From a virus, in UHGV virus genome UHGV-0303171: a stretch of 60,072 bases of DNA. The stretch is one strand, 5' to 3'. The number at the start of each line of letters is the position of its first letter. Within the stretch, counting starts at the first letter, position 1. Below, piece after piece: positions 24,505 to 60,072 of the stretch. The position numbers were made by a program, and so were the translations under genes. The notes below the pieces were generated by a model that was given only the letters and a program-made list of their open reading frames with translations, made no database searches and was not told where the DNA came from.

Positions 24505-24549
24505 GTTTGAAAAAAAATTGAAATGTGAAAAGAAGAAAGGAGGGTTCCG

Positions 24550-34689: not shown

Positions 34690-34826
34690 CACGTTCCGAG
34701 CAAGACATGTCAGCAAATACTCGGAACGTAAAATTTGATTACGCTGACATTACAGAATAACAACAGGAACGGGCGCTCTTAGGGGCGCCCTTCCCATATA
34801 AAAATTACGGGAAGGAATACAAAGAC

Positions 34827-35180: not shown

Positions 35181-35557
35181 GATCGTACCGTTCTCAGCGT
35201 GAGTTTTTCACCTGTGAATGGTATCCGCAAGCAAAAAAAATGGGAGTTGGCTGGACAGAATTTTGGAGCATGAATCCTAGAATTCTGAAAGCGGTATCTG
35301 CCGGATACGAAGAACAACTCCTTGATATTGATTATATGAATTGGATGTCAGGGCAATATCTTATCAGTGCAATCAATACGTGCTTTATCAAAGAAGAAAA
35401 GTATCTGAAGAAACCGATTTTGAAAACATTAATTGAAGAATCACGAATGACTGATGAAGAACGTGAACTTCGTGAGATGGAAGAGGAAATCAGAAAAATG
35501 GATGCTTGGATTGCAGCAGACAGGGCAAGAGGATTGCCGGAGACATCGATAAATTAG
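34827..35557 (+). CDS. tail assembly chaperone G-T fusion produced by -1 programmed frameshift at T_TTT_TTT (35084-35090)
   Basis: The -1 frame opens at 35084, immediately after its own TGA at 35081-83. It stays open to 35557 and overlaps the G frame for 94 nt. Confidence 0.5.
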
Positions 35558-35602
35558 GATGGGTTCACCATCCTTTATTTTTTGTAAAAAGGTGGTGAAA
35601 AC

Positions 35603-39826: not shown

Positions 39827-39839
39827 GAGGTGCTAGGAT

Positions 39840-40229
39840 ATGTCAATTAAATTGAGTGATTTCATCATTGTAAATGGTCATCAATATCCGGCACCGAAAT
39901 ATTATCCGAATTTTCAAGTTACGACTGCTACAAATGCTGCGAGAAATGCGGCAAATAAAGTAGTCGGACAGAAAATCGGTCGTGATAACTATAAGATAGA
40001 TTCATTGGAGTGGCCGTACTTAGATGCGGAAACTTGGTCAACAATACTACAAGAGTTTGATAAGAATTTCTTTAGTAGTGTCCGATTTTGGGATATGGTA
40101 AATAATAAGTGGCGTACATTAACAATGTATTGCGGAGACAGGACGGCAGATGTGTTCAAGATAGACTCATCCGGCCGTCCTCTTGCGTATATCAACTGTA
40201 AAATGAATCTGATTGATGCGGGGTGGTAG
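39840..40229 (+). CDS. tail component protein (hypothetical)
   Basis: 129-aa ORF immediately after the TMP gene. Confidence 0.5.
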   Translation: MSIKLSDFIIVNGHQYPAPKYYPNFQVTTATNAARNAANKVVGQKIGRDNYKIDSLEWPYLDAETWSTILQEFDKNFFSSVRFWDMVNNKWRTLTMYCGDRTADVFKIDSSGRPLAYINCKMNLIDAGW

Positions 40230-42474
40230 GATGTATGAAGTATCAGATGCATATAGAGAATCAATGAAAAATCCGCTGAGAAATGCTTCTCACATGAAAG
40301 TAACACTCGGCGTTATAAATGATACAGCACAGAGTCAGGCATTGCTGAGTGATCAAAGCCAGTATGCCGGATTTTCTGATTTTGATGGAGTGTTTGAACA
40401 GAAAGAAGTTCAAAATCAATATGCAACATATGAGAATAATTTTTGGCTGCTAGATGGATCCATGAGATTTCTCCCGGATGCAGCATCTCAGTATGAACCT
40501 GTTGGAATCGTATCGAAGGATCTGTTTTTGAGCAGTTTCTCGGTGAAAATGACATTTCAAGAGAATGTTGACATTGCCGGATTAACTATAAAGTTTGCCG
40601 GGAATTATCCTAGCAAATTTAGCATAATTACATCTGACGGAACATCAAAGAACTATTCAAACAGCAGCTTGAACTTTACGACAGATGATAGATTCGATAA
40701 CACAACTTCTCTTGAGATAAAAGTCGCTGAAATGTCTGCTACAAACAATCGTGTGCGTATTGAGAGCATTTTATTTGGCAATGCGGTAGTTTTTACAGAT
40801 AATGACATAATCAACGCAGAATCGGCTTCTACGATGTCGCAGATCAATGAGGACTTGCCTGAGATTAACTTCACGCTTACTCTTGATAATAACGATAAGA
40901 AATTCGATTACGACAATAAGGAATCAATTATCAATTATCTAAGGACAGGACAGGATGTAGTTGTTCAGATGGGATATGACCTTGATGATGAAACAACAGA
41001 GTGGATTTTGTTGCATACATTAAAGCTGAGTGAGTGGTCAGCCAGTGACGAAGAAGCGAGCATTAAAGCCGTAGACGTTCTTCAACAGTTCGGTGATGGT
41101 GACTATTACCGTGGAGACTGGCACGCAAAAGGAATTACACTGTATGCTTTGGCAAATTATGTAATTGCTGATGCAATCGGTACTTATTCGATTCCTCAAG
41201 ACAAGTTTTTTATTGACAAATACTTAAAGTCAGTAGAGGTCAGAAACCCTATTCCATTAGTGTCGCACAAAGAAGCATTGCAAATTATTGCTAATGCAGG
41301 AAGATGCGTTTTGACTGTGGATAGTTATGGAAAAATCTATATCAAGTCGGCATTTGACCCGGATGCAGAAACAACTTCTACTAAGACAACTTATTTTTCA
41401 GATGTATCAAATGTAAACGTTGATAGTGCAAAGATAAGGTACGCAACTTATGAAAATTTTAGATGGACATTAAAAGACAGACCTCCTTTCTTGCCGAGAA
41501 GTGGGGTAAGGGATGATGTTGGTTTTGTAAGTAATGATTTATACAAAAGCCCTGGAGGCTTCGACACAAATCCTCAGATAATTAAGAGATTCGAAGTTCC
41601 AAGAAAGAGTAATGGATTAAAAATTAAGGTTTATCACAATTTCCCTAAAAACATGAGCGTAAAAACTTTTCTAAATGATAAACTTGTGGAGACAATTGGT
41701 TTTTCAGACGGAGAGGTTACATACGATGGTAAAATAAATATTTGGACTACTAAGCATCAATTCAGTACATTTGACAGAATGGTGTTTGAGGTTGAAAAAA
41801 TCAATACAAGCAATGTGCGACTTGTTGTTGATTATATGGAACTTGGAGAAAACATTGATTACACGATTGAAAGAGATGACATGTATTCCAGTCCGACTAT
41901 GAGTAAGCCGGAGAATATCAAGCGGTTAAAGAATGTCAGAACTGTCTATTCAAAATCCGATACATTTGAAGAAATAGTTAGCGAAGATGTTGAGTGGACG
42001 AATGAAGTTCTTCTGTATACATTTGACGAACCACATCATTCTTATACGGCTTCCATTGAGAACCAAGCAGACGGTCAAAGTGTTGAGATTTCGGACAGTG
42101 GAGCATACTTTGTTGAACTTAAACTTAGCGGAAATGACAGAGGAAAGAAGGTCCAAGTCATCGTTAACGGTAAAAAATTCAATCAGTCAAACGCTTATTC
42201 CGTTGCGGAAATCAGCAATTACGGTGTTGAAAAAGATTGGAGCAATCCGCTGATTTCGGATAAGGAACTCTGTGATAAAGTCTGCAAATGGATAGCTGAT
42301 TATTACAATCCAGGCATTGATTACTCTATCGATTACCGTGGAGAACCGGCACTTGATGCAGGAGACACAATCTATCAAGAAAATCGTGACGGAGAAATGG
42401 TTAAGACGGTAGCGGAAAGCGTGTCGATGACATATGACGGAACTGTAAGTGGAACACTTGAAACTAGGAGGTGA
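40213..42474 (+). CDS. large tail or baseplate protein (Dit/Tal-like position)
   Basis: 753 aa, second gene after the TMP gene. Confidence 0.45.
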   Translation: MMRGGRMYEVSDAYRESMKNPLRNASHMKVTLGVINDTAQSQALLSDQSQYAGFSDFDGVFEQKEVQNQYATYENNFWLLDGSMRFLPDAASQYEPVGIVSKDLFLSSFSVKMTFQENVDIAGLTIKFAGNYPSKFSIITSDGTSKNYSNSSLNFTTDDRFDNTTSLEIKVAEMSATNNRVRIESILFGNAVVFTDNDIINAESASTMSQINEDLPEINFTLTLDNNDKKFDYDNKESIINYLRTGQDVVVQMGYDLDDETTEWILLHTLKLSEWSASDEEASIKAVDVLQQFGDGDYYRGDWHAKGITLYALANYVIADAIGTYSIPQDKFFIDKYLKSVEVRNPIPLVSHKEALQIIANAGRCVLTVDSYGKIYIKSAFDPDAETTSTKTTYFSDVSNVNVDSAKIRYATYENFRWTLKDRPPFLPRSGVRDDVGFVSNDLYKSPGGFDTNPQIIKRFEVPRKSNGLKIKVYHNFPKNMSVKTFLNDKLVETIGFSDGEVTYDGKINIWTTKHQFSTFDRMVFEVEKINTSNVRLVVDYMELGENIDYTIERDDMYSSPTMSKPENIKRLKNVRTVYSKSDTFEEIVSEDVEWTNEVLLYTFDEPHHSYTASIENQADGQSVEISDSGAYFVELKLSGNDRGKKVQVIVNGKKFNQSNAYSVAEISNYGVEKDWSNPLISDKELCDKVCKWIADYYNPGIDYSIDYRGEPALDAGDTIYQENRDGEMVKTVAESVSMTYDGTVSGTLETRR

Positions 42475-42478
42475 TAGT

Positions 42479-42889
42479 ATGGCATCATTTTCAAAGCCAT
42501 ACACGAAGTGGACAGGAAACTCATTTTTTACTCATACTGACTACAACAGAATCAAGAACAACATACAATATCTGATCGACTTGTCTTTTGAATTGTTTCC
42601 TGAATACGAATATGAGGATATGGGTAACGATAAGACATATTCCGATTTCCCGTATGCAGATGAATTCAATCTGATTGAATTGAACTTGAAGCTTTTACAT
42701 GACAAGTCGTTCGGTTTTGTAAAATACACATTCTCAGACATGAAGAACTGGTATCCAAATCAGCAGACACCGTCTTATGAGGATATGAACAGATATGAAC
42801 AGATGACTGTTGATTACTACAATGGTTTGAACAGCATCAAGAAAAACAAGAACAAGCTCGGTGATATCAAGCTTGGAATGAAGTTATAG
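42479..42889 (+). CDS. hypothetical tail-module protein
   Basis: ATG 42479 follows an AGGAGGTGA RBS. Confidence 0.5.
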   Translation: MASFSKPYTKWTGNSFFTHTDYNRIKNNIQYLIDLSFELFPEYEYEDMGNDKTYSDFPYADEFNLIELNLKLLHDKSFGFVKYTFSDMKNWYPNQQTPSYEDMNRYEQMTVDYYNGLNSIKKNKNKLGDIKLGMKL

Positions 42890-42900
42890 GAGGTTTCATC

Positions 42901-43395
42901 ATGGCATTAAGAACTGATTTTAAGGACAGCGTATTGAAAGACACAACTGGAAATAAGAAATACAAAATGACGAACAACAGCGACAATACAGTTTCTTTCA
43001 CTGATGTTACTGAGTACTCTCAAGAAGGTAGCTCCTATGGAGCAAAAGAAATTATTGAAGAAAGGGAAGCTATTAACTCTGTTATAGTGCCTAAAACAAG
43101 AACTGTCGAGGGTAGCTATCTGACTTGTGACGTTGCGGAAGCAGGAGCTGTAACATGGTTTAGAATTTCTAGTAATACGACATCAAAACTTACAAACGGA
43201 ACCGAATATAAACCGTTTACTGTGACGCCAGCGCCTCTGTTCGGAGTATTCCGCAGGATCTACATCACTGATTCTCTCGGTTTTATTTTCAAAATCACAA
43301 CCAGCGGACAAGTTAGTATCACTCCATTCAACGGAGATATTCCAGTTGGAACAGGAATTAATGTGTCTGAATTCTTTATGACATCGATGGAGTGA
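42901..43395 (+). CDS. hypothetical tail-module protein
   Basis: 164-aa ORF with a GGAGG RBS. Confidence 0.5.
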   Translation: MALRTDFKDSVLKDTTGNKKYKMTNNSDNTVSFTDVTEYSQEGSSYGAKEIIEEREAINSVIVPKTRTVEGSYLTCDVAEAGAVTWFRISSNTTSKLTNGTEYKPFTVTPAPLFGVFRRIYITDSLGFIFKITTSGQVSITPFNGDIPVGTGINVSEFFMTSME

Positions 43396-43399
43396 TGTT

Positions 43400-43711
43400 A
43401 TGAGAACATTAAAATTCAACGTAAAAGAGCAGAGGATAGAGAAAGCAAAGAACTGTGATTTTAGTGATATCGCAAGAGGGACAACGGGATATTTGAAAGC
43501 ACAGTTTTCTTTTTCCTCTGATTGGAACGGATACGCAAAGGTAGCTGTTTTCAATGATGCATGGGACAAAGTAGAAGAGTGCAGACCGATTATCGGCAAC
43601 GAGTGCGAAATCCCGTCAAAAGTTCTTGACAGCATCTCATTCAAAGTAAGGGTTATAGGCGTATCTGAGGGAAGAAGACTCACCACGAACAGAACGGAGG
43701 TGGATCAGTGA
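43400..43711 (+). CDS. hypothetical tail-module protein
   Basis: 103-aa ORF. Confidence 0.5.
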   Translation: MRTLKFNVKEQRIEKAKNCDFSDIARGTTGYLKAQFSFSSDWNGYAKVAVFNDAWDKVEECRPIIGNECEIPSKVLDSISFKVRVIGVSEGRRLTTNRTEVDQ

Positions 43712-44283
43712 CAGAGCAAGAAGCATTAGCTGTAGCACTGGCAGAACAGGAGCTTGTAAAGCCAGTCAATGACATTTTTATGATTGACCCTGAGACAAGG
43801 ACGATTAATGTACCGGACTCAGAAAGACTTTTCGGTGTGCAGTCAGATGAAAAGGCTGAAAGAAAGTATTTCAAGTGTCCGAAAATCGTTGGAAACAACA
43901 TCAATCTTGCGACCATGAATCTGTACATCAACTACAAAAGTCCGAATCAAGCAGATGAAGAGGGAGACTCCTACATTGTACAAGATGTTGTGACAAGCGG
44001 AGACTACATCACATTCTCTTGGATTCTTGGTCGAAATGTAACAAAATATACAGACGGAATTCACTTCTCTTTCTGCGCCAAAAAGTCAAACTCAGACGGC
44101 ACTCTTACGACAGAGTGGAACACAACATGGGCTGAGGGAGAAGTCCTTGAGGGATTGGAAACTACTCAGCAGATCGCGGAAAAGAACAAGGATTTAATTG
44201 AGCAGCTATTGAACACCTACGATTCCAAAGTTGCTGTGAAGTTGGAATTCGACCCGGCAACCCGTGGCATATCTATTATTTAA
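43708..44283 (+). CDS. hypothetical tail-module protein (C-terminus ATRGISII)
   Basis: GTG start after a GGAGGTG RBS, 191 aa. Confidence 0.5.
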   Translation: MTEQEALAVALAEQELVKPVNDIFMIDPETRTINVPDSERLFGVQSDEKAERKYFKCPKIVGNNINLATMNLYINYKSPNQADEEGDSYIVQDVVTSGDYITFSWILGRNVTKYTDGIHFSFCAKKSNSDGTLTTEWNTTWAEGEVLEGLETTQQIAEKNKDLIEQLLNTYDSKVAVKLEFDPATRGISII

Positions 44284-44295
44284 GGATGGAGAATT

Positions 44296-44463
44296 ATGGC
44301 ATTGAAAGCAGAAGATGTATTGGCGATTGTCAATGGAAAAATAAAGAATCCTGTCACTCAAGAACAAGTGACAACAGCTGTTAATGAGTATCTAAAAGAA
44401 AATCCAGTTACCGCAGGAACAGCAACATACAACACAGAGACAAGAGGAATCACGATTGAGTAA
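44296..44463 (+). CDS. hypothetical small protein (C-terminus ETRGITIE)
   Basis: 55-aa ORF after a GGAGAA RBS. It shares the C-terminal TRGI[ST]I motif with the previous ORF. Confidence 0.35.
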   Translation: MALKAEDVLAIVNGKIKNPVTQEQVTTAVNEYLKENPVTAGTATYNTETRGITIE

Positions 44464-44474
44464 GGAGGTACGAC

Positions 44475-44735
44475 ATGGCAACGAGTGATATTGGAAAAGC
44501 TGCATTTTTAAATGTAAAGAACAAAGACACGGGTGAAATCGAAAAGAAAACGCTAATCCCTCCAGCTCCGTCTGATGGGGATTTAGGAGGAATTTCAGAA
44601 GAAGAGCTGGTGCAGATCACAAAAAACAAAGAAAAAATCAGTTCACTAAATGAAGAAAAGGCGAATGGCAAAGGAATCTCATTCTCAATCAACGAATCAG
44701 GTGGACTTAGAGTAACTTATGATGATGGCAAATAG
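44475..44735 (+). CDS. hypothetical protein
   Basis: 86-aa ORF with an AAGGAGG RBS. Confidence 0.45.
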   Translation: MATSDIGKAAFLNVKNKDTGEIEKKTLIPPAPSDGDLGGISEEELVQITKNKEKISSLNEEKANGKGISFSINESGGLRVTYDDGK

Positions 44736-44747
44736 GAGGGCATAAGC

Positions 44748-46262
44748 ATGGCACAGGCATCTGTAGATATTGCTATGGAAAGTACATCTCAGGAGATTCT
44801 TGAGATGTGCAAAATTATCCGCACGATGGTGACGGATGTAGAAAAATTCGACTGGAAAAACTTCTGGGCGAATATGGCAACAGGAGAGCTGTTCTCCACA
44901 AAATTCTATAATTACGAAAGCTCAACGAATCCAGCCGGAGAAAAACTGAACGCTTCAAAAGGACTGGTTGCAGTTCCTTCCACAGACAAGGTTAAGAATC
45001 AGGATGATTTCGCTGGAAGAAATGCTTTCAATTACATTGACTGTAATTTCACCGTGACTGATTCGGGCGACAAGATTCCAGTTGCAATCAAAGGCGGTAA
45101 TGGATTTTTCAATACAGGAAAGGTCGATGTAGGAATCATGACTCCACCTACTTATTGGGGCAAGGAAGAATTTGACGGATATTACATCATTCATTTTTCT
45201 GATACGCCGCATCCGGAAGTTGGCTGCACCATTCCAACTCCGTGGACAGATGAGAATCTTGGATATGGCATGGTCACAAAGTATTATGCCGGATTGATTG
45301 ACGGAATCGCATACAGTTCTTCCGGGAACGCGATTTACAATTTTGTTTCTGCGCAGTTAGCAATCGATGAGCTGAAAAAGAAAGGCGCTGGATATGTCGG
45401 TTCAGGTTCGGAGCGTACTGCATATCTGCTCTGTATGCTGTGGATTAAGTATGCAACAAAGAATAGTCAGAAATATTTCAAAGGTTGTACCGAGACTGGT
45501 GGACATCAGTACAAAGTTGCTGAAGCTGGCGAGAACGTAAATTACGTGGCGATTACAACAGCTCAGGCGAAGAACTTCTATGTAGGAGAAACTGTATCAA
45601 TCGGTACTCCGGGAGCTAATAACAATGTTGACCGTGGACAGGCAAGCATGAATGCAATTGCAAAGAATGTGAGAATTACAGCGATCGAATCTATTGCGGG
45701 TACAGCAAACAGCAAGGTCTACGTTGAAAAGACTGGCATGACAATCACTGCGGATACTTACATTTCATCAATGCCACTTCACTCAGGTACAACAGATGAA
45801 GTGCTTGGAGCTGACGGATACATTTCCAATGACGGCAAGCACGCATTCAAGCTTGGTGGTATCGAGGAGGGTGTTGGAGCTAACTTCATCTCCATGAATG
45901 AGTTATGGAATAAAACCACAGCCAGTATGGTTGACTATTATGTGCGTCCAAAAGGCGTGGATTGGTCTGCGACAGCTTCAGGATGGAAGAAAGTTGTTAC
46001 AGTGGATTTGATTGACTCCAATGACTGTTGGATTGGAGATATCGACATTGACCTTGAGACTGGCGTTGATTATCTAAAAACGATTGGAACTGGTGATTCT
46101 GTTGGTGTCGGAGACAGACTCTATAAAGGCGGTACCGGCACTGGTTACAGAATGGCTTTGAAGCGTGGGAGTCTCAGGCTTGGCGGGCATGGCGGTTTCT
46201 GCTACTCGTATCTCTGGAACGTGGTCTCTGGGGCGTATTGGTACTGCGCCTTCTGCGTTTAG
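44748..46262 (+). CDS. DGR target protein: tail-fibre or receptor-binding-like protein with the variable repeat in its last 33 codons
   Basis: 504 aa, last gene of the tail module. The 3' 98 bp (VR) are 84 of 98 identical to the downstream TR, and all 14 differences fall at TR adenines. Confidence 0.7.
   Translation: MAQASVDIAMESTSQEILEMCKIIRTMVTDVEKFDWKNFWANMATGELFSTKFYNYESSTNPAGEKLNASKGLVAVPSTDKVKNQDDFAGRNAFNYIDCNFTVTDSGDKIPVAIKGGNGFFNTGKVDVGIMTPPTYWGKEEFDGYYIIHFSDTPHPEVGCTIPTPWTDENLGYGMVTKYYAGLIDGIAYSSSGNAIYNFVSAQLAIDELKKKGAGYVGSGSERTAYLLCMLWIKYATKNSQKYFKGCTETGGHQYKVAEAGENVNYVAITTAQAKNFYVGETVSIGTPGANNNVDRGQASMNAIAKNVRITAIESIAGTANSKVYVEKTGMTITADTYISSMPLHSGTTDEVLGADGYISNDGKHAFKLGGIEEGVGANFISMNELWNKTTASMVDYYVRPKGVDWSATASGWKKVVTVDLIDSNDCWIGDIDIDLETGVDYLKTIGTGDSVGVGDRLYKGGTGTGYRMALKRGSLRLGGHGGFCYSYLWNVVSGAYWYCAFCV
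46163..46260 (+). repeat. DGR variable repeat (VR)
   Basis: Ungapped match to TR at an offset of 196 bp. The mismatches are only A-to-N. Confidence 0.8.
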
Positions 46263-46358
46263 TTCCTACCACCTTTCAGGGGTGAATTTTTTCGCAGAAA
46301 AAAGAGGGGCTCTTCCCCTTAATTAAGTTGAAGAGAAAATACAGGACTTGTCGTGCTG

Positions 46359-46456
46359 GCGTGGGAATCTCAGGAATGGCGGGAATGGCGGTTTCTGCTA
46401 CTCGAATCTCAGGAACGAGGTCTCTAGGACGAATTGGAACTACGCCTTCTGAATTT
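46359..46456 (+). repeat. DGR template repeat (TR)
   Basis: Non-coding copy between the target gene and the RT. It carries adenines at every position that differs in VR. Confidence 0.8.
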
Positions 46457-46639
46457 TATTATGCAAACATTACGCACCGCTGGGTGCTTGCACGGCATTT
46501 CGCAACAATAAGTTGTACCGAAAGGTCTTAAATAAGTAACAAGAAAGGGAGCTGGTGCCACGGCAGTGGTACTGGCAGTTTATACGAATTGGTATAGGCT
46601 GGGGCTAGTAGAAAAAACCGAAAGTCCCTCGGAACTAAA

Positions 46640-47845
46640 ATGAAACGATATTGCAAGAACATTGATATAACAAGCAGAGAATTAATCTCAGAAGCAACAT
46701 GGAGCTGTATAAGTAATAAAATTACACATAGCGACACAATTCACATGTTCATGGAATACACAGGACTTCCGTATCAGTTCTTGATGGATGTAGCTCAAGA
46801 GAGCAGATATATGCTTGACAGCATTGTAGAAACTGTCATAGATGGAATCCGACAAGAAATACTGGAACAGAAGTATATCGTGAAGAAAATCCGTTACAGA
46901 ATCAAGAAAGATTCTTGTACCGGAAAACTACGAAATATCGGAATCCAAGATATTAAACAGCAAATTTACGATTATATCGCAGTATACGGCTTGAAAGAAT
47001 TGTTTGAGAAGAAACTTGAGTTTTATCAATGCGGAGCAGTTAAGCGTAAAGGTAATGAATTTGGAGCTGGAGCTATCAAGAAATGGCTGGCAGATAAAAA
47101 TATCCGTTGGGCATGGCAATCTGATGTTCGACATTATTATGAAAACATAAACAAAAATGTTCTGAAAAAGATGTTGAAACGTGATGTGAAGAATGACAAG
47201 CTTCTTCATTTAGTGTTCTTCTTGATTGATACGTTCGAGTATGGACTTTCTATAGGTTCATATTTGAGCCAGTTCTTAGCAAATTACTATCTGAGCAAGG
47301 CTTATATCTATGCAAGTCAACAGTTTAAGGTTCGCAAGAGGAAAGATGAAACAGCCAAGAAAGTAAGGCTTGTGAGTCATGTATTATTCCAGATGGATGA
47401 TATCATTTTCTTCGGTCGCAGCAAGAAAGACATGCAAATGCTAGTAAAGAGATTTAACGGATATATCGATAAAGAGCTAGGACTTGAATTGAAAGAAACA
47501 GCTCATTTCATTGATTTGCAGACAGGATATGTAGATATTCTTGGACGGAAGATATCAAGAAAGAATCTGACGATACGTTCATCAACATTCTTGAAAGCAA
47601 GGAGAACTTATAAGAGGGCATATTCGTATGTCTGCCACGGGAAAGAGATTCCGCTGAAACTTGCAAGAAGTTGTGTCGCAAGATACGGAGCAATCAAACA
47701 CACGGATAGCAAGAGATTTCAAAGACGATACCACATTGAAACTATAAATAAGGCAACTAAGAAAGTAATCGGACGAGCCGCGAAAGGAGAACAACGTGAA
47801 TACAATGAGATTTTCGGAGAAACAGGAGAAAGTAAACATCTATGA
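46640..47845 (+). CDS. DGR-type reverse transcriptase
   Basis: RT motifs 1-7 are recognisable. Motif 4 is GLSIGSYLSQFLANYYL, which carries the DGR hallmark IGxxxSQ. The catalytic box is FQMDDIIFFG. There are no maturase or endonuclease domains. Confidence 0.9.
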   Translation: MKRYCKNIDITSRELISEATWSCISNKITHSDTIHMFMEYTGLPYQFLMDVAQESRYMLDSIVETVIDGIRQEILEQKYIVKKIRYRIKKDSCTGKLRNIGIQDIKQQIYDYIAVYGLKELFEKKLEFYQCGAVKRKGNEFGAGAIKKWLADKNIRWAWQSDVRHYYENINKNVLKKMLKRDVKNDKLLHLVFFLIDTFEYGLSIGSYLSQFLANYYLSKAYIYASQQFKVRKRKDETAKKVRLVSHVLFQMDDIIFFGRSKKDMQMLVKRFNGYIDKELGLELKETAHFIDLQTGYVDILGRKISRKNLTIRSSTFLKARRTYKRAYSYVCHGKEIPLKLARSCVARYGAIKHTDSKRFQRRYHIETINKATKKVIGRAAKGEQREYNEIFGETGESKHL

Positions 47846-49907: not shown

Positions 49908-49944
49908 AAACAAAAATCCCGGGTGAAATTCCCGGGTTCTTTTT
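49908..49944. terminator. bidirectional intrinsic terminator
   Basis: The palindromic stem CCCGGG-tgaaatt-CCCGGG is flanked by an A-run on the 5' side and a T-run on the 3' side. It lies between the convergent endolysin and XRE genes. Confidence 0.65.
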
Positions 49945-50560
49945 ATTTCTTTTTATCGTTATTCTTTCTTGTTTGACCAGTCATTGTGTAACCGTTTTTG
50001 TTTTCACATGCAGCTTCACGACCTCTTTGCAAAGCGATATTTAAAGAAGCAAGGTCAGGCATTATATTATCTTCATTGACAAGTTCTCCTCTTGCTTTTT
50101 CCATAAGGAAGTTGTCGTAAACAGCTTGACAGATATTAACTCTCGACCGCATAGAGCAGTGATTGTTGGCTGTCAGCATATTTAATTGCTCGTGCCATGA
50201 GGAACCAGTGTCCCCGAACATACAGTAAGCCATTTGGCGAATATCACGCTCGGTGTAGCTTGTGTTTATGTAAGCATGAATACAGTCAACCATCTTTTCA
50301 ATTTCTGTATTGTCAACAGTCAAGAATTTATCAGGGTATCGGTAGCTGAGAATGTACTTTTCCATGTTTAATCCTAGCACCGAGAACCACTTTTCTAATG
50401 TTCTGTAACCAGGCTCACCTATTCCGGATTCCCAGTTCTGAATTGTAGTGACTGACTTTCCGAGAGCTTGAGCCATTTGTTTTCTTGTTTTTCCGGCATC
50501 TGTTCTTGATTTAGCAAGCATGTTACCGAAATTCTGTGCTCTTTCAATCTCAGATGACAT
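49943..50560 (-). CDS. XRE-family HTH transcriptional regulator with C-terminal domain (repressor-like)
   Basis: RKQMAQALGKSVTTIQNWESG is the HTH. The start is placed at the minus-strand ATG whose upstream GGGAGGT RBS lies at plus-strand 50569-50575. The track ORF extends further. Confidence 0.6.
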   Translation of the reverse strand: MSSEIERAQNFGNMLAKSRTDAGKTRKQMAQALGKSVTTIQNWESGIGEPGYRTLEKWFSVLGLNMEKYILSYRYPDKFLTVDNTEIEKMVDCIHAYINTSYTERDIRQMAYCMFGDTGSSWHEQLNMLTANNHCSMRSRVNICQAVYDNFLMEKARGELVNEDNIMPDLASLNIALQRGREAACENKNGYTMTGQTRKNNDKKK

Positions 50561-50761
50561 AAAAAATTTTACCTCCCTTTTGCCATTTCGCAACCAAAAA
50601 ATTGTGTTTCAAATTTTAAAAAATAAAGACATAATATTTTACGTCTATTTTTCACGGATGCAAACAAAAAAATTAATGCATAATTATAAAAAATTTAATA
50701 AGTAATTTTTCCTCCGTTTCCGCTATAATAAAAACAAATTTTAAAAAAGGAGGACAAACAC

Positions 50762-50965
50762 ATGAAAGAATTTTTAAACACTATTGCATACTTATTATCG
50801 GTGAGACCGATTATTGGTGAAACTGAGTACATGAGACAGTTGTCTTCCTACATTGGAACGATTGTCCCAGAGTCAAAGTCAGACCAATTTGATCGATTTC
50901 CTCTTGCATCTTACACCAGTGCTGACAATCTTGCAAGTGATATTTTCAAATTTATTAATGATTAA
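50762..50965 (+). CDS. hypothetical protein
   Basis: 67-aa ORF after an AAAGGAGGA RBS. Confidence 0.45.
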   Translation: MKEFLNTIAYLLSVRPIIGETEYMRQLSSYIGTIVPESKSDQFDRFPLASYTSADNLASDIFKFIND

Positions 50966-51171
50966 TTCTTAACAAGTACTATTAAATTCTCTTATAGCAG
51001 TTTTAGGAGGGGGGGTTCTATGAAGTATAAAGACGTAAAAGAATATTATAGAATAACAATTATCGAATACACGAATGAAATAGAAAATGAAAGTAATTTG
51101 AAAACGTTGTTCCATTTTGCCAAAGTATGTTTTGAAGAGGAAAAAAGAAAGGAGACGTAAGTCTCCCTTCC

Positions 51172-51558
51172 TCAATTTTTTGAAATAAACGTTTTATAGA
51201 AGTTACAAAAAAGTTTTTTCTTGTCATCATCCATATAATAGTAGTCCATTACCATATTCACAAAATCTTTATCAGTCTGAACAATTTTCTGAACAATTTT
51301 CAGGAATTCGTCTAACGATTCATCTTCTATATATGGATGATCGTCTGTTAGCTGAGTTTTCAAAACTCTAAAATAATCAGCAATCTCTTGAATTTTACCA
51401 GCTTTAGGAAGAATCTTCCCTTTACACCATGTATTAAATGTTGTATAAGAAAATCCCAACTCTTCGGCTACTTCTTTTTGTTGTTTTCCGCTCTTGGCAA
51501 TGTAGTAATTCAAGTTCTTAGCAAATATCTTCTTTTGCTCTTCATCGGTATATGACAT
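51172..51558 (-). CDS. CI-like XRE-family repressor
   Basis: QKEVAEELGFSYTTFNTWCKG is the HTH. The RBS is GGAGGTGTGAG. The gene is divergent from the Cro-like gene. Confidence 0.65.
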   Translation of the reverse strand: MSYTDEEQKKIFAKNLNYYIAKSGKQQKEVAEELGFSYTTFNTWCKGKILPKAGKIQEIADYFRVLKTQLTDDHPYIEDESLDEFLKIVQKIVQTDKDFVNMVMDYYYMDDDKKKLFCNFYKTFISKN

Positions 51559-51597
51559 TCTCACACCTCCTCTCTTGCATTGAATATAGTAACACAC

Positions 51598-53103: not shown

Positions 53104-53346
53104 ATGATAAACAAACTTAATCATGAGAAAGTAAACGGAGATTCCGAAGAACTGCACGCACTGAAAGGGTTCAAGGTCTTATCTGTTGGTAACGGAACAA
53201 TCGGAGAAGAGTGTGCGTTGAGAATCATGCTGATGAACGAGAACAACGTTGCTGTTGATTTAAGCATCACGGAAGGCGGAGCGTACCTCAGCGATTTCTG
53301 CGCACTGACAGAGGACATGATTCCTCGTAACTATGAGGATAAATAA
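53104..53346 (+). CDS. hypothetical protein
   Basis: 80-aa ORF after a GGAGGTG RBS. Confidence 0.45.
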   Translation: MINKLNHEKVNGDSEELHALKGFKVLSVGNGTIGEECALRIMLMNENNVAVDLSITEGGAYLSDFCALTEDMIPRNYEDK

Positions 53347-53523
53347 ATGTTAGATGTAATTGATATCAAAAGGAAGAGGCTTGAAGTAATTGATATCCGA
53401 AGAGAACTCCAGGTGATGGAAGAAGATGAATCTTACGATGACCTGACACCATTTCTTGTAGGAGTGATATCGGTAGCTTTACCACTTCTTATGACAGCGG
53501 TATGGGTGATATGCGGATATTAA
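53347..53523 (+). CDS. hypothetical small membrane protein
   Basis: 58 aa with a C-terminal TM helix. Confidence 0.35.
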   Translation: MLDVIDIKRKRLEVIDIRRELQVMEEDESYDDLTPFLVGVISVALPLLMTAVWVICGY

Positions 53524-53600
53524 AAAGAGTGCCATAACAAAGGCGGCAACCTTCTGGCACTCGGCTATAAAACCAACTTAATAATAGCATAGGAGGAGAA

Positions 53601-53762
53601 ATGAAACAACCAAAGAAACTTTCATTGTGGCAAAAGAAGTGTTTAGCAGCACATTATCTGAACGCAAAAGACTGGATGCTTCTTGAGGAAACAGAATTCT
53701 ACTTGAAGATTATCAATAAGTACACGAACAAGACGAAGAGCATTGATAAATTTAGGAGGTGA
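53601..53762 (+). CDS. hypothetical small protein
   Basis: 53-aa ORF after an AGGAGGAGAA RBS. Confidence 0.35.
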   Translation: MKQPKKLSLWQKKCLAAHYLNAKDWMLLEETEFYLKIINKYTNKTKSIDKFRR

Positions 53763-53765
53763 ACC

Positions 53766-53942
53766 ATGAAAACAAGAGGACTTACCGAAGAAGAATCAGA
53801 GATTGTGTCTGCTGCTGGATTAAAACCGGGAGAATGGGAGTGTGCATTAGAAGATTTTGCATACTTACATATAATAAGGAAGAATTGCAAAAACAGAGCA
53901 ATTATCGACAAAGAGAAAGGAGCGCTTATCCGATTTGTATAA
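53766..53942 (+). CDS. hypothetical small protein
   Basis: 58-aa ORF after a GGAGGTGAACC RBS. Confidence 0.4.
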   Translation: MKTRGLTEEESEIVSAAGLKPGEWECALEDFAYLHIIRKNCKNRAIIDKEKGALIRFV

Positions 53943-54086
53943 ATGTGATGATAACTTTGAACCAGAAGAACCTGATGTAGAATGCACTTGTTGTGGATGC
54001 AAAATCGATGACGGAGATTACATGTACTGCATATCAGGAGAAATACTATGTGAGGATTGTTTAAACGATCAGTATAGGAGGATTGT

Positions 54087-54284
54087 ATGAACGAGATTAT
54101 AAAAGTAACTATTCCAATGGAAACGCTCATGGGATTGCTGAGAAAGGAAGCGGAACTCAGGGTATTGAAAGGACATATCAGTGCTGAAATCGAATCAGAA
54201 TCAAGTGATTATATTGATAAAAAGAAAATCGCAAGTATTTGTTCTATTTCATTCAATAAGGAAAACGAGGGAGGGGGATTCTGA
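54087..54284 (+). CDS. hypothetical protein
   Basis: 65-aa ORF after an AGGAGGATTG RBS. Confidence 0.4.
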   Translation: MNEIIKVTIPMETLMGLLRKEAELRVLKGHISAEIESESSDYIDKKKIASICSISFNKENEGGGF

Positions 54285-55096
54285 TGGCTGGATTATCAAT
54301 TCCACAAAGCGAATATAGAGCGCATCCAGCAATCAGTAAATCGGACTTGTTCAAGATTACAAAGTCTCCACTTCATTTTAAATGGTCAATGGAGAACAAG
54401 GAAGACAAAACAGCAGCACTCATTTTCGGAAGTGCGTGCCACAAGTATATTCTTGAGCGTGATGATTTTGATAGTGAATTTGCTGTTGCTCTGAACGTAG
54501 ACAGACGAACAAAAGATGGTAAAGAAGAATATGCTAAGTGGCTAGAAGAAAATGAGGGAAAAGATGTAGTTTCTTCTGATGATATGGAGAAAATCAAAGC
54601 CATGGCACAAGTGATCGATTCCAACAGGTTTGCAAAGAGACTTCTTTCCGGTGAACATGAAAAGTCATTCTTTTGGACTGATGAACAAACGGAAGAAGAA
54701 TGCAAGTGTAGACCGGATGATATTACCATTATTGGAAATCAGCACATCCTTGTTGATTATAAGACTACGGACAACGCAGAGACAGAAGCTTTCAGAGCGT
54801 CTGCAATCAAATATGGATATGATCTGCAAGCCGGTATGTACTGTGAGGGTTACAAGGCGAACACCGGGGAAGATGCGATATTCATTTTCGTGGCACAGGA
54901 AAAGAAACCGCCGTATGCAATCAACATTCTTCAAGCCGATGAATACATGATGATTGAGGGAAAGAACTTGTTTCACGATTTGATGGAAATATACCATAAC
55001 TGCAAGGTTACTGACAACTGGTATGGATACATGGGCGAAACCGGGGACGTACAGAGTCTTGGATTGCCAAAATGGTTACAGAAAGAATTTGAATAG
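54284..55096 (+). CDS. PD-(D/E)XK-family exonuclease (YqaJ/lambda-Exo-like partner of RecT)
   Basis: 270 aa immediately upstream of recT. An acidic and Lys catalytic-core pattern (ILVDYKTT) is present. Confidence 0.55.
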   Translation: MAGLSIPQSEYRAHPAISKSDLFKITKSPLHFKWSMENKEDKTAALIFGSACHKYILERDDFDSEFAVALNVDRRTKDGKEEYAKWLEENEGKDVVSSDDMEKIKAMAQVIDSNRFAKRLLSGEHEKSFFWTDEQTEEECKCRPDDITIIGNQHILVDYKTTDNAETEAFRASAIKYGYDLQAGMYCEGYKANTGEDAIFIFVAQEKKPPYAINILQADEYMMIEGKNLFHDLMEIYHNCKVTDNWYGYMGETGDVQSLGLPKWLQKEFE

Positions 55097-55110
55097 GAGG
55101 ACAAACAACT

Positions 55111-55965
55111 ATGTCAAACAATGAAGTAAAAGAGTATCAGGTAGGAGCACCTACAATGCAAATTCCTGATACATCAAAAATAAATCAGGGAACCGTTGCT
55201 ATTGAGTCAAGCAGAGCCATGGTAGAAGCACAGGGAAAGCTTCTGTTGGCGAAACAGTTTCCTAGAAACTACACACAATCATATACGAAAGCGATTGAAG
55301 CGTGTCAACGGAAAGGATTTGCAGAAAGTGCATTCTATTCTTATCCAAGAGGAAAAGAGACTGTGACAGGAGTTACGATCAGATTTGCTGAGGAGCTTGC
55401 TCGCTGCTACGGAAACATGGATTATGGTATTAAAGAGCTTTCACACGAAGATGGACGTTCGGAAATGCAGGCTTACGCTTGGGATTTGGAAACGAACACT
55501 ATTTCCAGTCAGAACTTTACTGTTGAGCATATCAGAGAGACACGGTACGGGAATAACAAGCTAACATCTCAGCGTGACATCTATGAGAAGACTGCAAACG
55601 ATGGAGCAAGAAGACTCAGAAGCCGTATCCTTGCGATTTTGCCACCGGACCTTATCGAAAACTGTATCAATGAGTGCAAGAAGACTCTCAGGGGAGAAGA
55701 GAGCTTACCACTGTCTGACAGAGTAAGAACACTGGTTGCGTACTTCTCTAAGAAAGGCGTGACACAGGAAATGATTGAGAAACGTCTGAACCACAAAGTT
55801 GAGACCATGACTTCTGACGAACTTGTTGAATATACCGGAATCTATAACGGTCTGATTCACAAAGAAACAACCATCTCAGATTGGTTCGAGCAACCGAAGA
55901 CAGCGAGTCAGATTTCAGAGCTGATGAAAGAGGAAGAAGAAAACGAGAAAAAGGGTGATAAGTAA
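55111..55965 (+). CDS. recT: RecT-family single-strand annealing protein
   Basis: The RecT-like core is FAEELARCYGNMDYG...AYAWDLETNT...RSRILAILPPDLIE. Confidence 0.8.
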   Translation: MSNNEVKEYQVGAPTMQIPDTSKINQGTVAIESSRAMVEAQGKLLLAKQFPRNYTQSYTKAIEACQRKGFAESAFYSYPRGKETVTGVTIRFAEELARCYGNMDYGIKELSHEDGRSEMQAYAWDLETNTISSQNFTVEHIRETRYGNNKLTSQRDIYEKTANDGARRLRSRILAILPPDLIENCINECKKTLRGEESLPLSDRVRTLVAYFSKKGVTQEMIEKRLNHKVETMTSDELVEYTGIYNGLIHKETTISDWFEQPKTASQISELMKEEEENEKKGDK

Positions 55966-55966
55966 A

Positions 55967-56359
55967 ATGGAATATCATGTGACTGTTAAAGGGTTTAAAA
56001 GCGGATTGAATGAGCTTTTAGGTGGAAGAATGTATGACCACCGGACCAAGAAGTATCGTAATCCGGAAAAGAGTAGAAATGATGCAATCTGCGCTAAGTA
56101 CATCAAACTGAGCAAGGATTTACGTGGCGTAAAGATTGAAAGACCTGTAATTATTCATTATTCGTTTTATTGTGAAAACAAGATGCACGACAGGATGAAT
56201 GTTGCTTCTGCTTTTATTAAGTCTTTTGAAGATGCGATGCAAAAATGTAGAATTATCAGAAATGATGGTTGGGACGATGTACTCACTCCGACATTATCAT
56301 TTGATATTGACAAGCAGAAACCGAGAGTAGAAGTGACAATTGAAGAGGTAGAAGAATGA
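55967..56359 (+). CDS. RusA-like Holliday junction resolvase (putative)
   Basis: HDRMNVASAFIKSFEDAMQKCRIIRNDGWDDV fits the RusA D.DN..K...DAL....DD..V pattern. Confidence 0.5.
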   Translation: MEYHVTVKGFKSGLNELLGGRMYDHRTKKYRNPEKSRNDAICAKYIKLSKDLRGVKIERPVIIHYSFYCENKMHDRMNVASAFIKSFEDAMQKCRIIRNDGWDDVLTPTLSFDIDKQKPRVEVTIEEVEE

Positions 56360-56793
56360 ATAATGTAAGTTTAGTTGGCAGACTTGTTCGTGATCCAGAA
56401 GTGAGATATGGACAAAATGAAAGTGTTTCAGTAGCAAAGTTTTCACTGGCAGTTGAAAGAAAATGGAAGAGAGACGGTGAGCCTACAGTTGATTTTATAA
56501 ATTGTACAGTGTTTGGGAAATCAGCAGAATTCACAGAGAAATATTTCCGAAAAGGAATGAGAGTTGCGATTACTGGAAGAATTCAGACTGGCAGTTACAA
56601 GAACAAAGATGGACAGACTGTTTTTACGACAGAGATTATCGTAGAGTCACAGGAAATCGCTCAGAGTAAATCAGAGAGTAATGAAAGTTCCACCGCTAGC
56701 AATGCAGAAGCTGGAAAATCACCATACGGTTCTAGCGGAGACGATTTTATGTCTATTCCTGAAGGTACTGAAGATGAACTCCCGTTCTCATAA
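56356..56793 (+). CDS. ssb: single-stranded DNA-binding protein
   Basis: The OB-fold N-terminus is MNNVSLVGRLVRDPEVRYGQNESVSVAKFSLAV. The acidic C-terminal tail is DDFMSIPEGTEDELPF. Confidence 0.95.
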   Translation: MNNVSLVGRLVRDPEVRYGQNESVSVAKFSLAVERKWKRDGEPTVDFINCTVFGKSAEFTEKYFRKGMRVAITGRIQTGSYKNKDGQTVFTTEIIVESQEIAQSKSESNESSTASNAEAGKSPYGSSGDDFMSIPEGTEDELPFS

Positions 56794-56872
56794 GCCGAAA
56801 AAGTGTTGTCATCCAGATTGCTTTAATTGTCCGTATTCCGATTGTATATGGGACGAACTTACGTCAAGCGAT

Positions 56873-57202
56873 ATGTCAGAGACTAATAATCGAGACTATC
56901 AATTTTACGAAGAGTCAACAGGTGAAAAGTATCATAAAGGTACGGACAATGAATACAGAGCAGAAAGAGAAAAGCTGTACAGGAAAGAGCATCCGGTCAA
57001 AAGAGATCGTTCTGAATACAATAAACAATATTATCTGAAGAATAAGGAAAGGATTAAAAAGAATCGTTCCAGTTCTTATGACACTGATTGCAATACGAAA
57101 AAATGTAAAAAGTGGAGAAAATCTCACATGGAACACAAGAAAGAATATGACAGAAAGAGATATTTACAAAGAAAGGCAGAATTAAAGCCAGGGGGAACTT
57201 GA
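56873..57202 (+). CDS. basic K/R-rich hypothetical protein
   Basis: The start is placed at the first ATG after the ssb stop. The track ORF overlaps ssb. Confidence 0.4.
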   Translation: MSETNNRDYQFYEESTGEKYHKGTDNEYRAEREKLYRKEHPVKRDRSEYNKQYYLKNKERIKKNRSSSYDTDCNTKKCKKWRKSHMEHKKEYDRKRYLQRKAELKPGGT

Positions 57203-57218
57203 TTTGGGAGAGAGAAGA

Positions 57219-57935
57219 ATGTTTACGAAAAGAATCACAGAATCAGATGAATTTTTGGGAATGCCTAGTAGCTCTCAGATGCTGTACTTCCATCTTTCGA
57301 TGAATGCTGACGATGATGGATTTGTCAGCAATCCACGGAAGATTCAGAGAATGTGTGGTGCTTCAAATGATGATTATGACTTGTTAATTATGAAGAGATT
57401 CATTCTGACGTTTGAAAGTGGTGTTATCGTAATCAAGCATTGGAGAATGCATAACTACATTCAATCTGACCGATATAAGCCAACCGACTGCATCGATGAA
57501 AAGAAGATGCTTGGGTTGAAAAAGAACAAGGCTTACACTCTGGATGCATCTCAGATGGATAAGAGATGCATCCAGGCAACTGACAAGATTACATCTGATA
57601 GAGAAATCGCACAAATTGAGGAACCAAGCAGTCAGATTGAGTCAATCAAAGAAATCATATCGTACTTGAATATGAGAACCGGAGCAAGATACAGATATCA
57701 AACTCAAAGCACTCAAAAGCATATTAGAGCAAGGCTGAATGAACATTTTACTGTTGATGATTTCAAGGCAGTGATTGACAAGAAATACGCTGAGTGGAAC
57801 GGGACAAACATGAGCAAGTTTTTGAGACCAGAGACATTGTTCGGGACTAAATTTGAGAGTTACTTAAATCAGAGTGCATCTACTGCAAATTCTGCCAATG
57901 GAAAGATTTCTGAATGGAGTGAGTTACGGACATGA
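57219..57935 (+). CDS. phage replisome organizer / DnaD-like replication protein
   Basis: The C-terminus ARLNEHFTVDDFKAVIDKKYAEWNGTNMSKFLRPETLFGTKFESYLNQ matches the conserved phage replication-protein C-terminal domain (Phg_2220_C-type). Confidence 0.7.
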   Translation: MFTKRITESDEFLGMPSSSQMLYFHLSMNADDDGFVSNPRKIQRMCGASNDDYDLLIMKRFILTFESGVIVIKHWRMHNYIQSDRYKPTDCIDEKKMLGLKKNKAYTLDASQMDKRCIQATDKITSDREIAQIEEPSSQIESIKEIISYLNMRTGARYRYQTQSTQKHIRARLNEHFTVDDFKAVIDKKYAEWNGTNMSKFLRPETLFGTKFESYLNQSASTANSANGKISEWSELRT

Positions 57936-58462
57936 CAAAAAATGAAACAATTCAAATCATAATGATGATTCAAGCCACGTATCCTCAATGGGATGTGCAA
58001 GACAAGCAATACACCGTCAATATGTGGCAGAAGATATTCGAAGAAGAAGAATATAGCGTTGTTGAACAAGCTTTAATGGCTTACATCAGATCAGACACAA
58101 AAGGTTTTGCACCAGTCCCAGGACAATTAATAGAGAAGATTCAGTTCATTACTCAACCAAAACAGATGAACGAAGTAGAAGCGTGGTCGCTTGTCAGCAA
58201 AGCACTCAAAAGATGCGGGTATTATGCTGATGAAGAATTTGAGAAACTTCCGAAGCTTGTTCAGAAAGCAGTTGGCAGCCCTAGTCAATTAAGAACATGG
58301 GCAATTGACAAAAATTACAATGAACAGGTGACCAGCTCAAACTTCATGCGATCTTACCGAGAAGAAGTGAGAAACGAAACACTGTTCGGTAAGATGAGTT
58401 TAGTTATCAGAAATGCAATTACAGATAACAGAAATGTTGGAATGATTGAAGAGAAAGGATAG
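57932..58462 (+). CDS. G39P-like helicase loader (putative)
   Basis: IQIIMMIQATYPQWDVQDKQYTVNMWQKIF...APVPGQLIEKI resembles the loader/inhibitor of G40P N-terminal domain. Confidence 0.5.
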   Translation: MTKNETIQIIMMIQATYPQWDVQDKQYTVNMWQKIFEEEEYSVVEQALMAYIRSDTKGFAPVPGQLIEKIQFITQPKQMNEVEAWSLVSKALKRCGYYADEEFEKLPKLVQKAVGSPSQLRTWAIDKNYNEQVTSSNFMRSYREEVRNETLFGKMSLVIRNAITDNRNVGMIEEKG

Positions 58463-58467
58463 AGAAT

Positions 58468-59121
58468 ATGAGTGAAGCTATTAAATCATACAAAGGATTC
58501 AGAAAAGACATGACTTGCAGAGGTTATCAGTATGAAGAAGGTAAAGAATATGAAGAAAGCAATGCATTAATTTGTGAAAATAGATTCCATGCTTGTGAAT
58601 ATCCGTTGGATTGTCTTAGTTATTATAGTCCATCGGAAAGTGTATATCATGAAGTTGAACAGAGTGGAAAGATTTCGAAAAAATCAGGAGATACCAAAGT
58701 TGCATCAACAAAAATTAAAATTGGTGCAAAACTTAGTATTGCAGGATTAGTAGAAGCAGCTATTGAATATACGGAAGAAAGAGTCAAACAAGAAGAGGAT
58801 TCCGATGGAGACTACGGAGCATCCTCAGCGACAGGAAACTGTGGAGCATCCTCAGCGACAGGATACAAAGGAGCATCCTCAGCAGAAAGCCCTAACGCTG
58901 TCGCTGTGGCTTGGGGATATAAAGGAAAAGCGAAAGGCGTGAAAGGCTCGTTTCTTGTCCTTGCAGACTGGGAGTGTAAAGGAAAAGAATCAGATAACTA
59001 TTATAAAGAAGATATGTGGGATCTAAAAGATGCTGTGATAGTTCGTGTTGACGGAGAAACAATCAAAGAAGATACGTGGTACACGATGGTTGACGGAAAA
59101 GTTGTTGAGGTAAAGGAGTAG
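58468..59121 (+). CDS. hypothetical protein with GASSATG repeats
   Basis: 217-aa ORF after a GAGAAAGGATAG RBS. Confidence 0.5.
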   Translation: MSEAIKSYKGFRKDMTCRGYQYEEGKEYEESNALICENRFHACEYPLDCLSYYSPSESVYHEVEQSGKISKKSGDTKVASTKIKIGAKLSIAGLVEAAIEYTEERVKQEEDSDGDYGASSATGNCGASSATGYKGASSAESPNAVAVAWGYKGKAKGVKGSFLVLADWECKGKESDNYYKEDMWDLKDAVIVRVDGETIKEDTWYTMVDGKVVEVKE

Positions 59122-59123
59122 CC

Positions 59124-59342
59124 ATGAACACAGGAGAAAAGATAGATTACATGATTCAGTGTTTGAAAGTCGCAAAAGCTGAGTGGGATTACATGGCTGA
59201 TTACATTGCAAATGAACCGACTGAAAGATCAGAGCTGTGGGAGTTCCTTGATACACACAGAAGTCCGAACAAGGCGTTGATTAAGGACAACTTGAAAAAC
59301 GTGGCGAGAATGGGATTCCAGCTTGCGAATGAGGTGAAGTGA
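59124..59342 (+). CDS. hypothetical protein
   Basis: 72-aa ORF. Confidence 0.45.
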   Translation: MNTGEKIDYMIQCLKVAKAEWDYMADYIANEPTERSELWEFLDTHRSPNKALIKDNLKNVARMGFQLANEVK

Positions 59343-59500
59343 TGATGACGGTAAGAGAAGAACAGGTACTTTGCAAACTGCATGAATTTATCGATGCAAA
59401 CGATATTAATTGTGCAGAAGATGTGACGCAGCGAGATAGCATAAGTGAACAGTGCGTAGATCTTGTGGCAGAGTTGGTTGATACGCTTTGCTATAAATAA
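59342..59500 (+). CDS. hypothetical small protein
   Basis: 52 aa with overlapping ATGA start. Confidence 0.3.
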   Translation: MMTVREEQVLCKLHEFIDANDINCAEDVTQRDSISEQCVDLVAELVDTLCYK

Positions 59501-59565: not shown

Positions 59566-60072
59566 ATGAAACAGAGAATAAAGAAAATAAAATGTGAAAT
59601 CTTTCGAGATTCCATGCAGAACTATAAGAAATATGCAATCCCACCAGCACAGCTAATTATAGCGGATGTGCCATACAATGTCGGAAGTAATTTCTACGGA
59701 AGCAATCCAATGTGGTACGTAGGTGGGGATAATAAAAATGGTGAAAGCAAACTTGCAAAGAAAGCAGCATTCAATTCCGATTTCAATTTCAATTTGTATG
59801 AGTATTTCCATTTTTGCTCAAAAATGTTGAAGAAAGAACCTAAGAAAGCTGGTAAGCGTGGACGAAGTTCTGACGCACCATGCATGATTGTGTTTTGCAG
59901 TTTCGAACAGTTAAGCACACTGATCAACGCAGCTAAGAAACATGGCTTTGTGAATTACATACCGCTTGTATTTGTGAAAAATTACAGCCCACAGGTATTG
60001 AAAGCAAATATGCGTGTTGTAGGCGCTACGGAATACGCTTTGGTATTATACCGAGACAAACTTCCAAAATTT
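59566..60072 (+). CDS. DNA methyltransferase, N-terminal part (ORF runs off the window end and resumes in frame at nt 1)
   Basis: IIADVPYNVG is a DPPY-like motif IV. There is no stop before nt 60072 and exactly 169 codons. Continuation at 1..357 gives the HPAQKP and DPCCGSGST motifs in the correct order for PF01555. Confidence 0.75.
   Translation, partial: MKQRIKKIKCEIFRDSMQNYKKYAIPPAQLIIADVPYNVGSNFYGSNPMWYVGGDNKNGESKLAKKAAFNSDFNFNLYEYFHFCSKMLKKEPKKAGKRGRSSDAPCMIVFCSFEQLSTLINAAKKHGFVNYIPLVFVKNYSPQVLKANMRVVGATEYALVLYRDKLPKF

Follow-up and report, generated by a model that had tools for sequence, protein, structure and literature searches.

The methyltransferase gene at the ends of the window

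The stretch of DNA analysed here, hereafter the window, is 60,072 bp long, contains no Ns, and has its ends within one gene for a DNA methyltransferase (Table 1). From the ATG at position 59566, the reading frame is free of stops up to the end of the window, over 507 nt or exactly 169 sense codons, and frame 1 from nucleotide 1 is open for another 118 codons. A preliminary description of this DNA had read the two parts as a single methyltransferase ORF that wraps from the end to the start of the window without a frameshift, and this reading was borne out, both by the single stretch of family homology and by the invariant, ungapped residues at the join described below. The translation over the 60072/1 junction reads ...YRDKLPKF/RNGAQFDENGK, and in a six-frame check over the join the only open frame was that of the methyltransferase (310 aa), the other five giving 20 to 65 aa. 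The three motifs named earlier, DVPY, HPAQKP and VIDPCCGSGST, were all found in their places, and in the joined protein they fall within ADVPYN (residues 33–38), IHPAQKP (205–211) and VIDPCCGSGST (229–239). The open joined ORF is thus confirmed, but not the length of 288 residues given for its product, which has 287, codon 288 being the stop.

Table 1. Positions of the features discussed in the text, in coordinates of the window
Feature	Position	Strand	Remarks
DNA methyltransferase gene, 5' part	59566–60072	+	codons 1–169; catalytic motif IV is DVPY (residues 34–37)
DNA methyltransferase gene, 3' part	1–357	+	codons 170–287 and TGA (355–357); HPAQKP and AdoMet-binding motif I, DPCCGSGST
Left half of the junction 40-mer	60053–60072	+	the right half is nt 1–20
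Excisionase, Tn916-type, with an extra N-terminal HTH domain	7099–7578	+	PF09035, E 6.2e-22
Tyrosine integrase whose N-terminal arm-binding domain is of the Tn916-Int type	7655–8845	+	PF00589 (2.9e-29), PF14659, PF02920
attP region with arm-type repeats	8846–9120	+	GTGTGTAMR at 8846, 8857, 9079, 9090 and 9112, on both sides of the core
attP core, 52 bp common to attP, attL and attR	8939–8990	+	last 17 codons (TYYVYQVTPYDLYGTPF) and stop of the host homoserine O-acyltransferase gene
Closure point of contig k119_301910, from an independent assembly	47613–47731		exact 119-nt terminal overlap, inside the reverse-transcriptase gene
Candidate anti-defence gene	809–1498		229-aa product
Accessory region	9000–20000		between attP and the packaging genes
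FtsK/SpoIIIE-type ATPase gene	16957–17718	-	within the accessory region
Three tRNA genes	23295–24505		Ser-GCT, Arg-ACG, Gln-TTG; just upstream of the terminase gene
DGR	44748–47845
DGR, variable repeat	46163–46260		3' end of a 504-aa gene (44748–46262)
DGR, template repeat	46359–46456
DGR, reverse transcriptase gene	46640–47845
27-nt tandem array	58816–58883		2.5 copies of GGAGCATCCTCAGCGACAGGAAACAAA, inside the DUF7666 gene
DUF7666 gene	58468–59121		217 aa

Two ATG codons are candidate starts, one at 59566 (287 aa) and the other at 59614 (M17; 271 aa, the RefSeq call), and the gene wraps around with either. The residues upstream of M17 (KCEIYRDS) are conserved in 10 of the 12 aligned relatives, which favours the 287-aa form. 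In the protein collection searched, the exact 287-aa form was absent and only the 271-aa form is on record: residues 17–287 equal WP_226871607.1 / MCB5755748.1 (Mediterraneibacter faecis) over all 271 residues, the join included. This protein, which is found on 93 contigs, is annotated from M17, whereas the upstream ATG of the window adds 16 residues.

A search with the joined product, proposed in the preliminary description, gave contiguous methyltransferase homology across the junction. Pfam PF01555 (N6_N4_Mtase) matched in one stretch, residues 29–264 against positions 2–220 of the 221 of the profile (E 3.6e-26; 92.9 bits against a Pfam gathering threshold of 26.7), and the PHROG match was phrog_67, DNA methyltransferase (4.1e-51). 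Relatives in the protein database run into thousands, the best of which are 277–294 aa long and show 85–96% identity at 92–100% query coverage. In an alignment of 12 sequences, L166, P167, K168, F169, R170, N171 and G172 are invariant and the join is ungapped. Judged by the profile match and the alignment, the continuity of homology over the join is far beyond chance.

The enzyme is a beta-class PF01555 methyltransferase whose variable target-recognition region lies mid-protein, where the window is cut. Motif IV (D34-V35-P36-Y37) is invariant in 12 homologues and departs from the canonical (D/N/S)PP(Y/F/W) in that Val replaces the first Pro. Motif I (D231-P-C-C-G-S-G-S-T239), also invariant in the 12-sequence alignment, sits 197 residues C-terminal to DVPY; this order, motif IV before motif I, is the beta permutation. 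With Asp, not Ser, as its first residue, motif IV favours N6-adenine over N4-cytosine. Since motif IV is of the Asp type and the nearest structural relatives are adenine enzymes (see below), the protein is most likely an N6-adenine methyltransferase acting on a specific DNA motif. The best NCBIfam matches were adenine-methyltransferase models, far below their cut-offs; this search gave no equivalog-level assignment, so that no target specificity is transferable. From what is known of the family, an orphan methyltransferase of this kind, having no adjacent restriction partner, would pre-modify the phage DNA against host restriction.

In some relatives a second methyltransferase gene directly follows this one (L001, 10858–13368; L003, 6626–9136; L002, 10858–12411; L093, 4623–5327). 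It codes for a C5 enzyme (PF00145, 517 aa), for the same enzyme with a Hint-domain intein (836 aa) or for a 234-aa PF01555 enzyme, and as it varies among the relatives and has no counterpart in the window, it may represent a swappable methyltransferase cassette. Contigs L023, L029, L031, L045, L047 and L054 carry a methyltransferase 82–86% identical to that of the window, under MAG labels that include Paludibacteraceae, Bacteroidaceae, Bacteroidales, Alphaproteobacteria and Cyanobacteria. Given that this is a Lachnospiraceae phage gene, such labels most likely reflect mis-binned phage contigs and not true hosts.

The join in other assemblies and circular closure

The exact 40-mer formed by the last 20 and the first 20 nt of the window lies inside 14 public contigs (8 from IMG/VR and 6 metagenome contigs). 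Seven ENA/Logan contigs are colinear across the join, with the genes upstream (59107–59359) and downstream (381–1559) in the same order, and L010 (52.8 kb), which shares 96% identity with positions 53134–59106, crosses the join and is colinear to position 7102. In the isolate genome of [Ruminococcus] faecis JCM 15917 the gene is intact, deep in a 334-kb contig, at 98% amino acid identity, and the DNA is 95.9% identical to that of the window over 1355 nt spanning the join. The end-to-start join is thus real DNA. Base composition is continuous across it, with GC content and GC skew of 0.397 and 0.226 at the end of the window and of 0.366 and 0.279 at its start. The start point of the window cuts one ordinary, already catalogued methyltransferase gene, which is intact in the real molecule.

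The preliminary description had proposed a search of the raw reads for terminal redundancy. We looked for it in the ends of the window, which share no overlap of at least 8 nt; this fits trimming of an overlap and is not itself evidence of closure. Closure is deduced from other assemblies, and not from the record of the window itself.

The main comparison is with contig k119_301910 of ENA ERZ27298361 (MEGAHIT, 60,299 bp), found through the exact integrase of the window. Its first 119 nt recur exactly at its end, and 119 is the MEGAHIT k in the contig name; an end overlap of the length of k is the usual signature of a closed assembly path. The comparison took in contig positions 1–31413 and 47316–60299 (44.4 kb), and over these parts the contig covers the window from 47613 through 60072/1 to 18845, and from 34748 to 47731, at 99.97–99.99% identity (99.98% from 58807 through the join to 18845). 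The only gap in the compared parts is one insertion of 108 nt, or four extra 27-nt repeat units, and the lengths agree, as 60,299 - 119 = 60,180 = 60,072 + 108. As the breakpoint of each assembly is internal to the other, the two are circular permutations of one genome of ~60.1 kb. Moreover, the assemblies break at different points, each within a gene (at 60072/1 in that of the methyltransferase, at 47613 in that of the reverse transcriptase), so the breakpoints are assembler artefacts and not physical ends.

No host sequence is present beyond either end of the window. Together with the junction 40-mer, the JCM 15917 genome and the closure of k119_301910, this bears out the earlier proposal that the window is a whole circular or circularly permuted molecule. 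We regard it as almost certain that this assembly is complete and circularly closed, and that it belongs to a temperate siphovirus-type phage of ~60 kb whose host is Mediterraneibacter ([Ruminococcus]) faecis. The window is one full unit of the circular map, any terminal overlap having been trimmed, and the arbitrary breakpoint of the assembler falls between codons 169 and 170 of the PF01555 methyltransferase gene, in the early region.

A related unit-length contig, L104 (ENA ERZ19650812 k119_53970, 61,279 bp), has flag_3 in its MEGAHIT header. We take this flag to denote a stand-alone looped path, which would make L104 another circularly closed relative.

Integration site and host

The excisionase and integrase genes are followed by the attP region (Table 1). 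GTGTGTAMR is found five times in the whole window, each time within positions 8846–9120; 1.21 sites are expected, and none of 100 shuffles reached five. Such a distribution would be expected of arm-type sites for an integrase whose N-terminal domain is of the Tn916 type.

In the attR contigs L093–L097, the identical integrase is followed by bacterial genes for dUTPase, GerA, DegV, infC-rpmI-rplT and dnaG; these integrated copies diverge from the window exactly after nucleotide 8990, 145 nt beyond the int stop codon. NCBI assigns the exact DegV, GerA and IF-3 proteins of the attR flanks to Mediterraneibacter faecis or to Mediterraneibacter. The attL contig L113 codes, in its positions 1–516, for the last 171 residues of a homoserine O-succinyl/acetyl-transferase of the PF04204 family (E 8.7e-72) and then passes into the phage sequence right of 8990. 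L113 and the attR contig L097 come from one sample, ERZ27287804. In attL and attR the flanks switch exactly at the core, which in L093 lies at about 11285–11336. The attP form is uninterrupted in the window, L091, L092, L098 and L114; an empty attB was not recovered.

These comparisons show integration, the att sites and the host, and the window is the non-integrated (attP) form of an integrating temperate phage. The Tn916-type Int/Xis pair recombines the attP core with the homoserine O-acyltransferase gene (metA-type) of the host, at its 3' end, and the phage copy of the core restores the last 17 codons of that gene. The earlier view that Int and attP (7655–9200) are internal to the contig is correct, as the comparison with L093–L097 and L113 shows.

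Three positions of the core vary (8945, 8966 and 8972); the changes are all synonymous and are present in integrated and free forms. We considered whether these substitutions are host-derived attB sequence and rejected this, since the free contig L098 and the attL and attR of one sample share the variants, which points to strain variation. Likewise, a nested Tn916-like element made up of Xis, Int and the FtsK-like gene was considered and rejected, as attL and attR bracket the whole 60-kb phage.

Gene content and variable regions

From 49.9 kb onwards, the gene order is two minus-strand HTH repressors (49943–51597), an anti-repressor (52383), a RecE-like exonuclease (54284), a DnaD-type helicase loader (57204), the DUF7666 protein and the methyltransferase, then small accessory genes, Xis and Int. 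Later come TerL (24999), the portal (27540), the major head protein (30354), the tape measure (35603), the diversity-generating retroelement (DGR) and the endolysin (48819). The modules for repressor, anti-repressor, exonuclease, loader, Xis/Int, TerL, portal, head, tape measure, reverse transcriptase and endolysin are each found once. A look-up of the anti-repressor gave only other relatives, as the protein is shared too widely.

In the DGR, which looks active, the two repeats differ at 14 positions, all of them template adenines, and 14 of the 23 adenines are changed. The tandem array in the DUF7666 gene is the site of the length difference from k119_301910, in which this gene has four more repeat units (+108 nt) and codes for 253 aa. 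Among relatives the gene product varies from 92 to 338 aa, one of them with a faint collagen-like match.

Candidate anti-defence genes lie downstream of the methyltransferase gene. Near-identical genes in L002 and L092 carry the precomputed label PF26128 Gad2, and a Pfam scan of the 229-aa protein of the window gave nothing at E<=0.01; relatives (e.g. L093, 7609–7953) carry Tad4 (PF25186) and the anti-Pycsar protein Apyc1. The accessory region has a lower GC skew and genes on mixed strands. It contains a Q/N-rich protein, a Gly/Cys-rich protein of 259 aa, an M78-like peptidase fragment, Rha and several family-less ORFs, and is 98% conserved in L091, L092 and L098.

Alternative readings

The circle may exist at the level of the assembly only, the DNA being either virion DNA from headful packaging, circularly permuted and terminally redundant, or replicative concatemers, and not a monomeric episome. 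We give this reading a little less than an even chance. A monomer circle, concatemers and permuted virion DNA all give the same closed assembly, the two assemblies break at different intragenic places, so that neither breakpoint is a physical end, and the packaging and structural module of the phage is complete. Its terminase has a T7-type RNaseH-like nuclease domain, which is compatible with either cos or headful packaging and does not tell the mode. Nothing counts against this reading, which is compatible with the complete, closed phage genome that we prefer and was allowed for in the preliminary description; as a temperate phage, once excised, also goes through a monomer-circle stage, the DNA forms probably coexist. 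It is, by contrast, very improbable that the molecule is a non-integrating phage-plasmid kept extrachromosomally. The several contigs in the uninterrupted attP form and the FtsK/SpoIIIE-type ATPase would suit such an element, but the identical integrase lies at prophage–host junctions in at least five contigs, attL and attR match in sample ERZ27287804, and Xis, Int, arm repeats and the 52-bp core are all present. Partition or plasmid-replication (Par, Rep) families were not found among the ~40 proteins scanned, a subset of the ORFs. The plasmid-prophage alternative raised earlier is therefore unsupported, the element integrating into the chromosome of M. faecis.

The view of the window as a linear slice of a longer prophage record with host flanks, in which the half-genes would be separate truncated fragments or paralogues, has no support other than that ORFs run off the ends of the window. 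This view is refuted: the element ends at 8990/8991 in the integrated copies, not at 60072/1, and the two gene halves are complementary, non-overlapping parts of one profile, contiguous in the 93 contigs with the identical protein. The idea that the in-frame continuity is fortuitous, or due to an assembly chimera, is likewise refuted; chance alone would put one frame in three in phase, but the residues at the join are invariant and without an indel, the junction 40-mer recurs in 14 independent contigs, and the flanking genes are syntenic on both sides. A more far-reaching idea is that the phage persists for long in the gut as a replicating extrachromosomal circle (carrier or pseudolysogenic state) beside the integrated form, with the DVPY orphan methyltransferase shielding it from restriction or other DNA-targeting defences in more than one host genus. 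Contigs of the attP form and of the integrated form are both common, and the DVPY variant is invariant in the family; however, both would also be seen with any inducible prophage that carries an orphan methyltransferase, and we consider the idea unlikely.

The preferred reading, a closed genome of a temperate M. faecis phage, is of practical and not conceptual value. The finding is ordinary and already known, the protein being in RefSeq and its relatives abundant in gut metagenomes, and a gene that wraps around the arbitrary origin of a circular contig is routine. With nothing missing at its ends and no flanking host DNA, the window can serve as a complete, closed genome; its two terminal partial ORFs should be merged into a single gene in the annotation, and the record would be better rotated, e.g. 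so that it begins with the attP core or with the terminase gene. A host, M. faecis, has now been assigned, and so has an integration site, at the 3' end of the homoserine O-acyltransferase gene.

Comparison with known systems

The closest solved structure is that of the Helicobacter pylori adenine methyltransferase deposited as 'DpnA' (PDB 5HEK, 5HFJ), a PF01555 enzyme with the same beta-class motif order. 5HEK aligns to residues 105–267 in one piece (E 1.2e-16), motif I pairing with its DPFMGSGTT, whereas DVPY aligns with its DPPY only in a sub-threshold segment. CcrM (6PBD), M.MboIIA (1G60) and M.RsrI (1EG2) belong to the same family and likewise have a (D/S)PPY-type motif first and the AdoMet motif last. 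Unlike these solved PF01555 enzymes, the protein of the window, a distant relative, has DVPY in place of DPPY and an insert of ~45 residues after motif IV, and its N-terminal third is barely alignable.

Among GenBank phages, the closest match is gp48, a DNA methylase, of Ruminococcus phage phiRM10 (MT980841.1; host [Ruminococcus] gnavus), with 73.6% nucleotide identity over 896 nt spanning the join. phiRM10 is a different phage, as no GenBank phage record matched the remainder of the window by megablast; the 24-kb structural region, searched in the same way, likewise gave no match, so that the window does not come from a deposited phage record. In a preprint on prevalent temperate phages of gut Firmicutes ('GuFi' family-level clusters), a vOTU of >60 kb with a DGR is linked to M. 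faecis by Hi-C, and junction-of-circularization PCR shows that prophages excise and circularize (bioRxiv 10.64898/2026.01.26.701711). Such >60-kb, DGR-bearing phages linked to M. faecis are similar to the window, a likeness that is a lead only and does not amount to cluster membership.

In mechanism, the integration system is not unusual. As in site-specific integration of the lambda type at the 3' end of host genes, genes for a tyrosine integrase and an excisionase lie by an attP in which arm repeats flank a core shared with attB; here, however, the target is a homoserine O-acyltransferase gene and not a tRNA gene, and Int/Xis end a rightward early operon.
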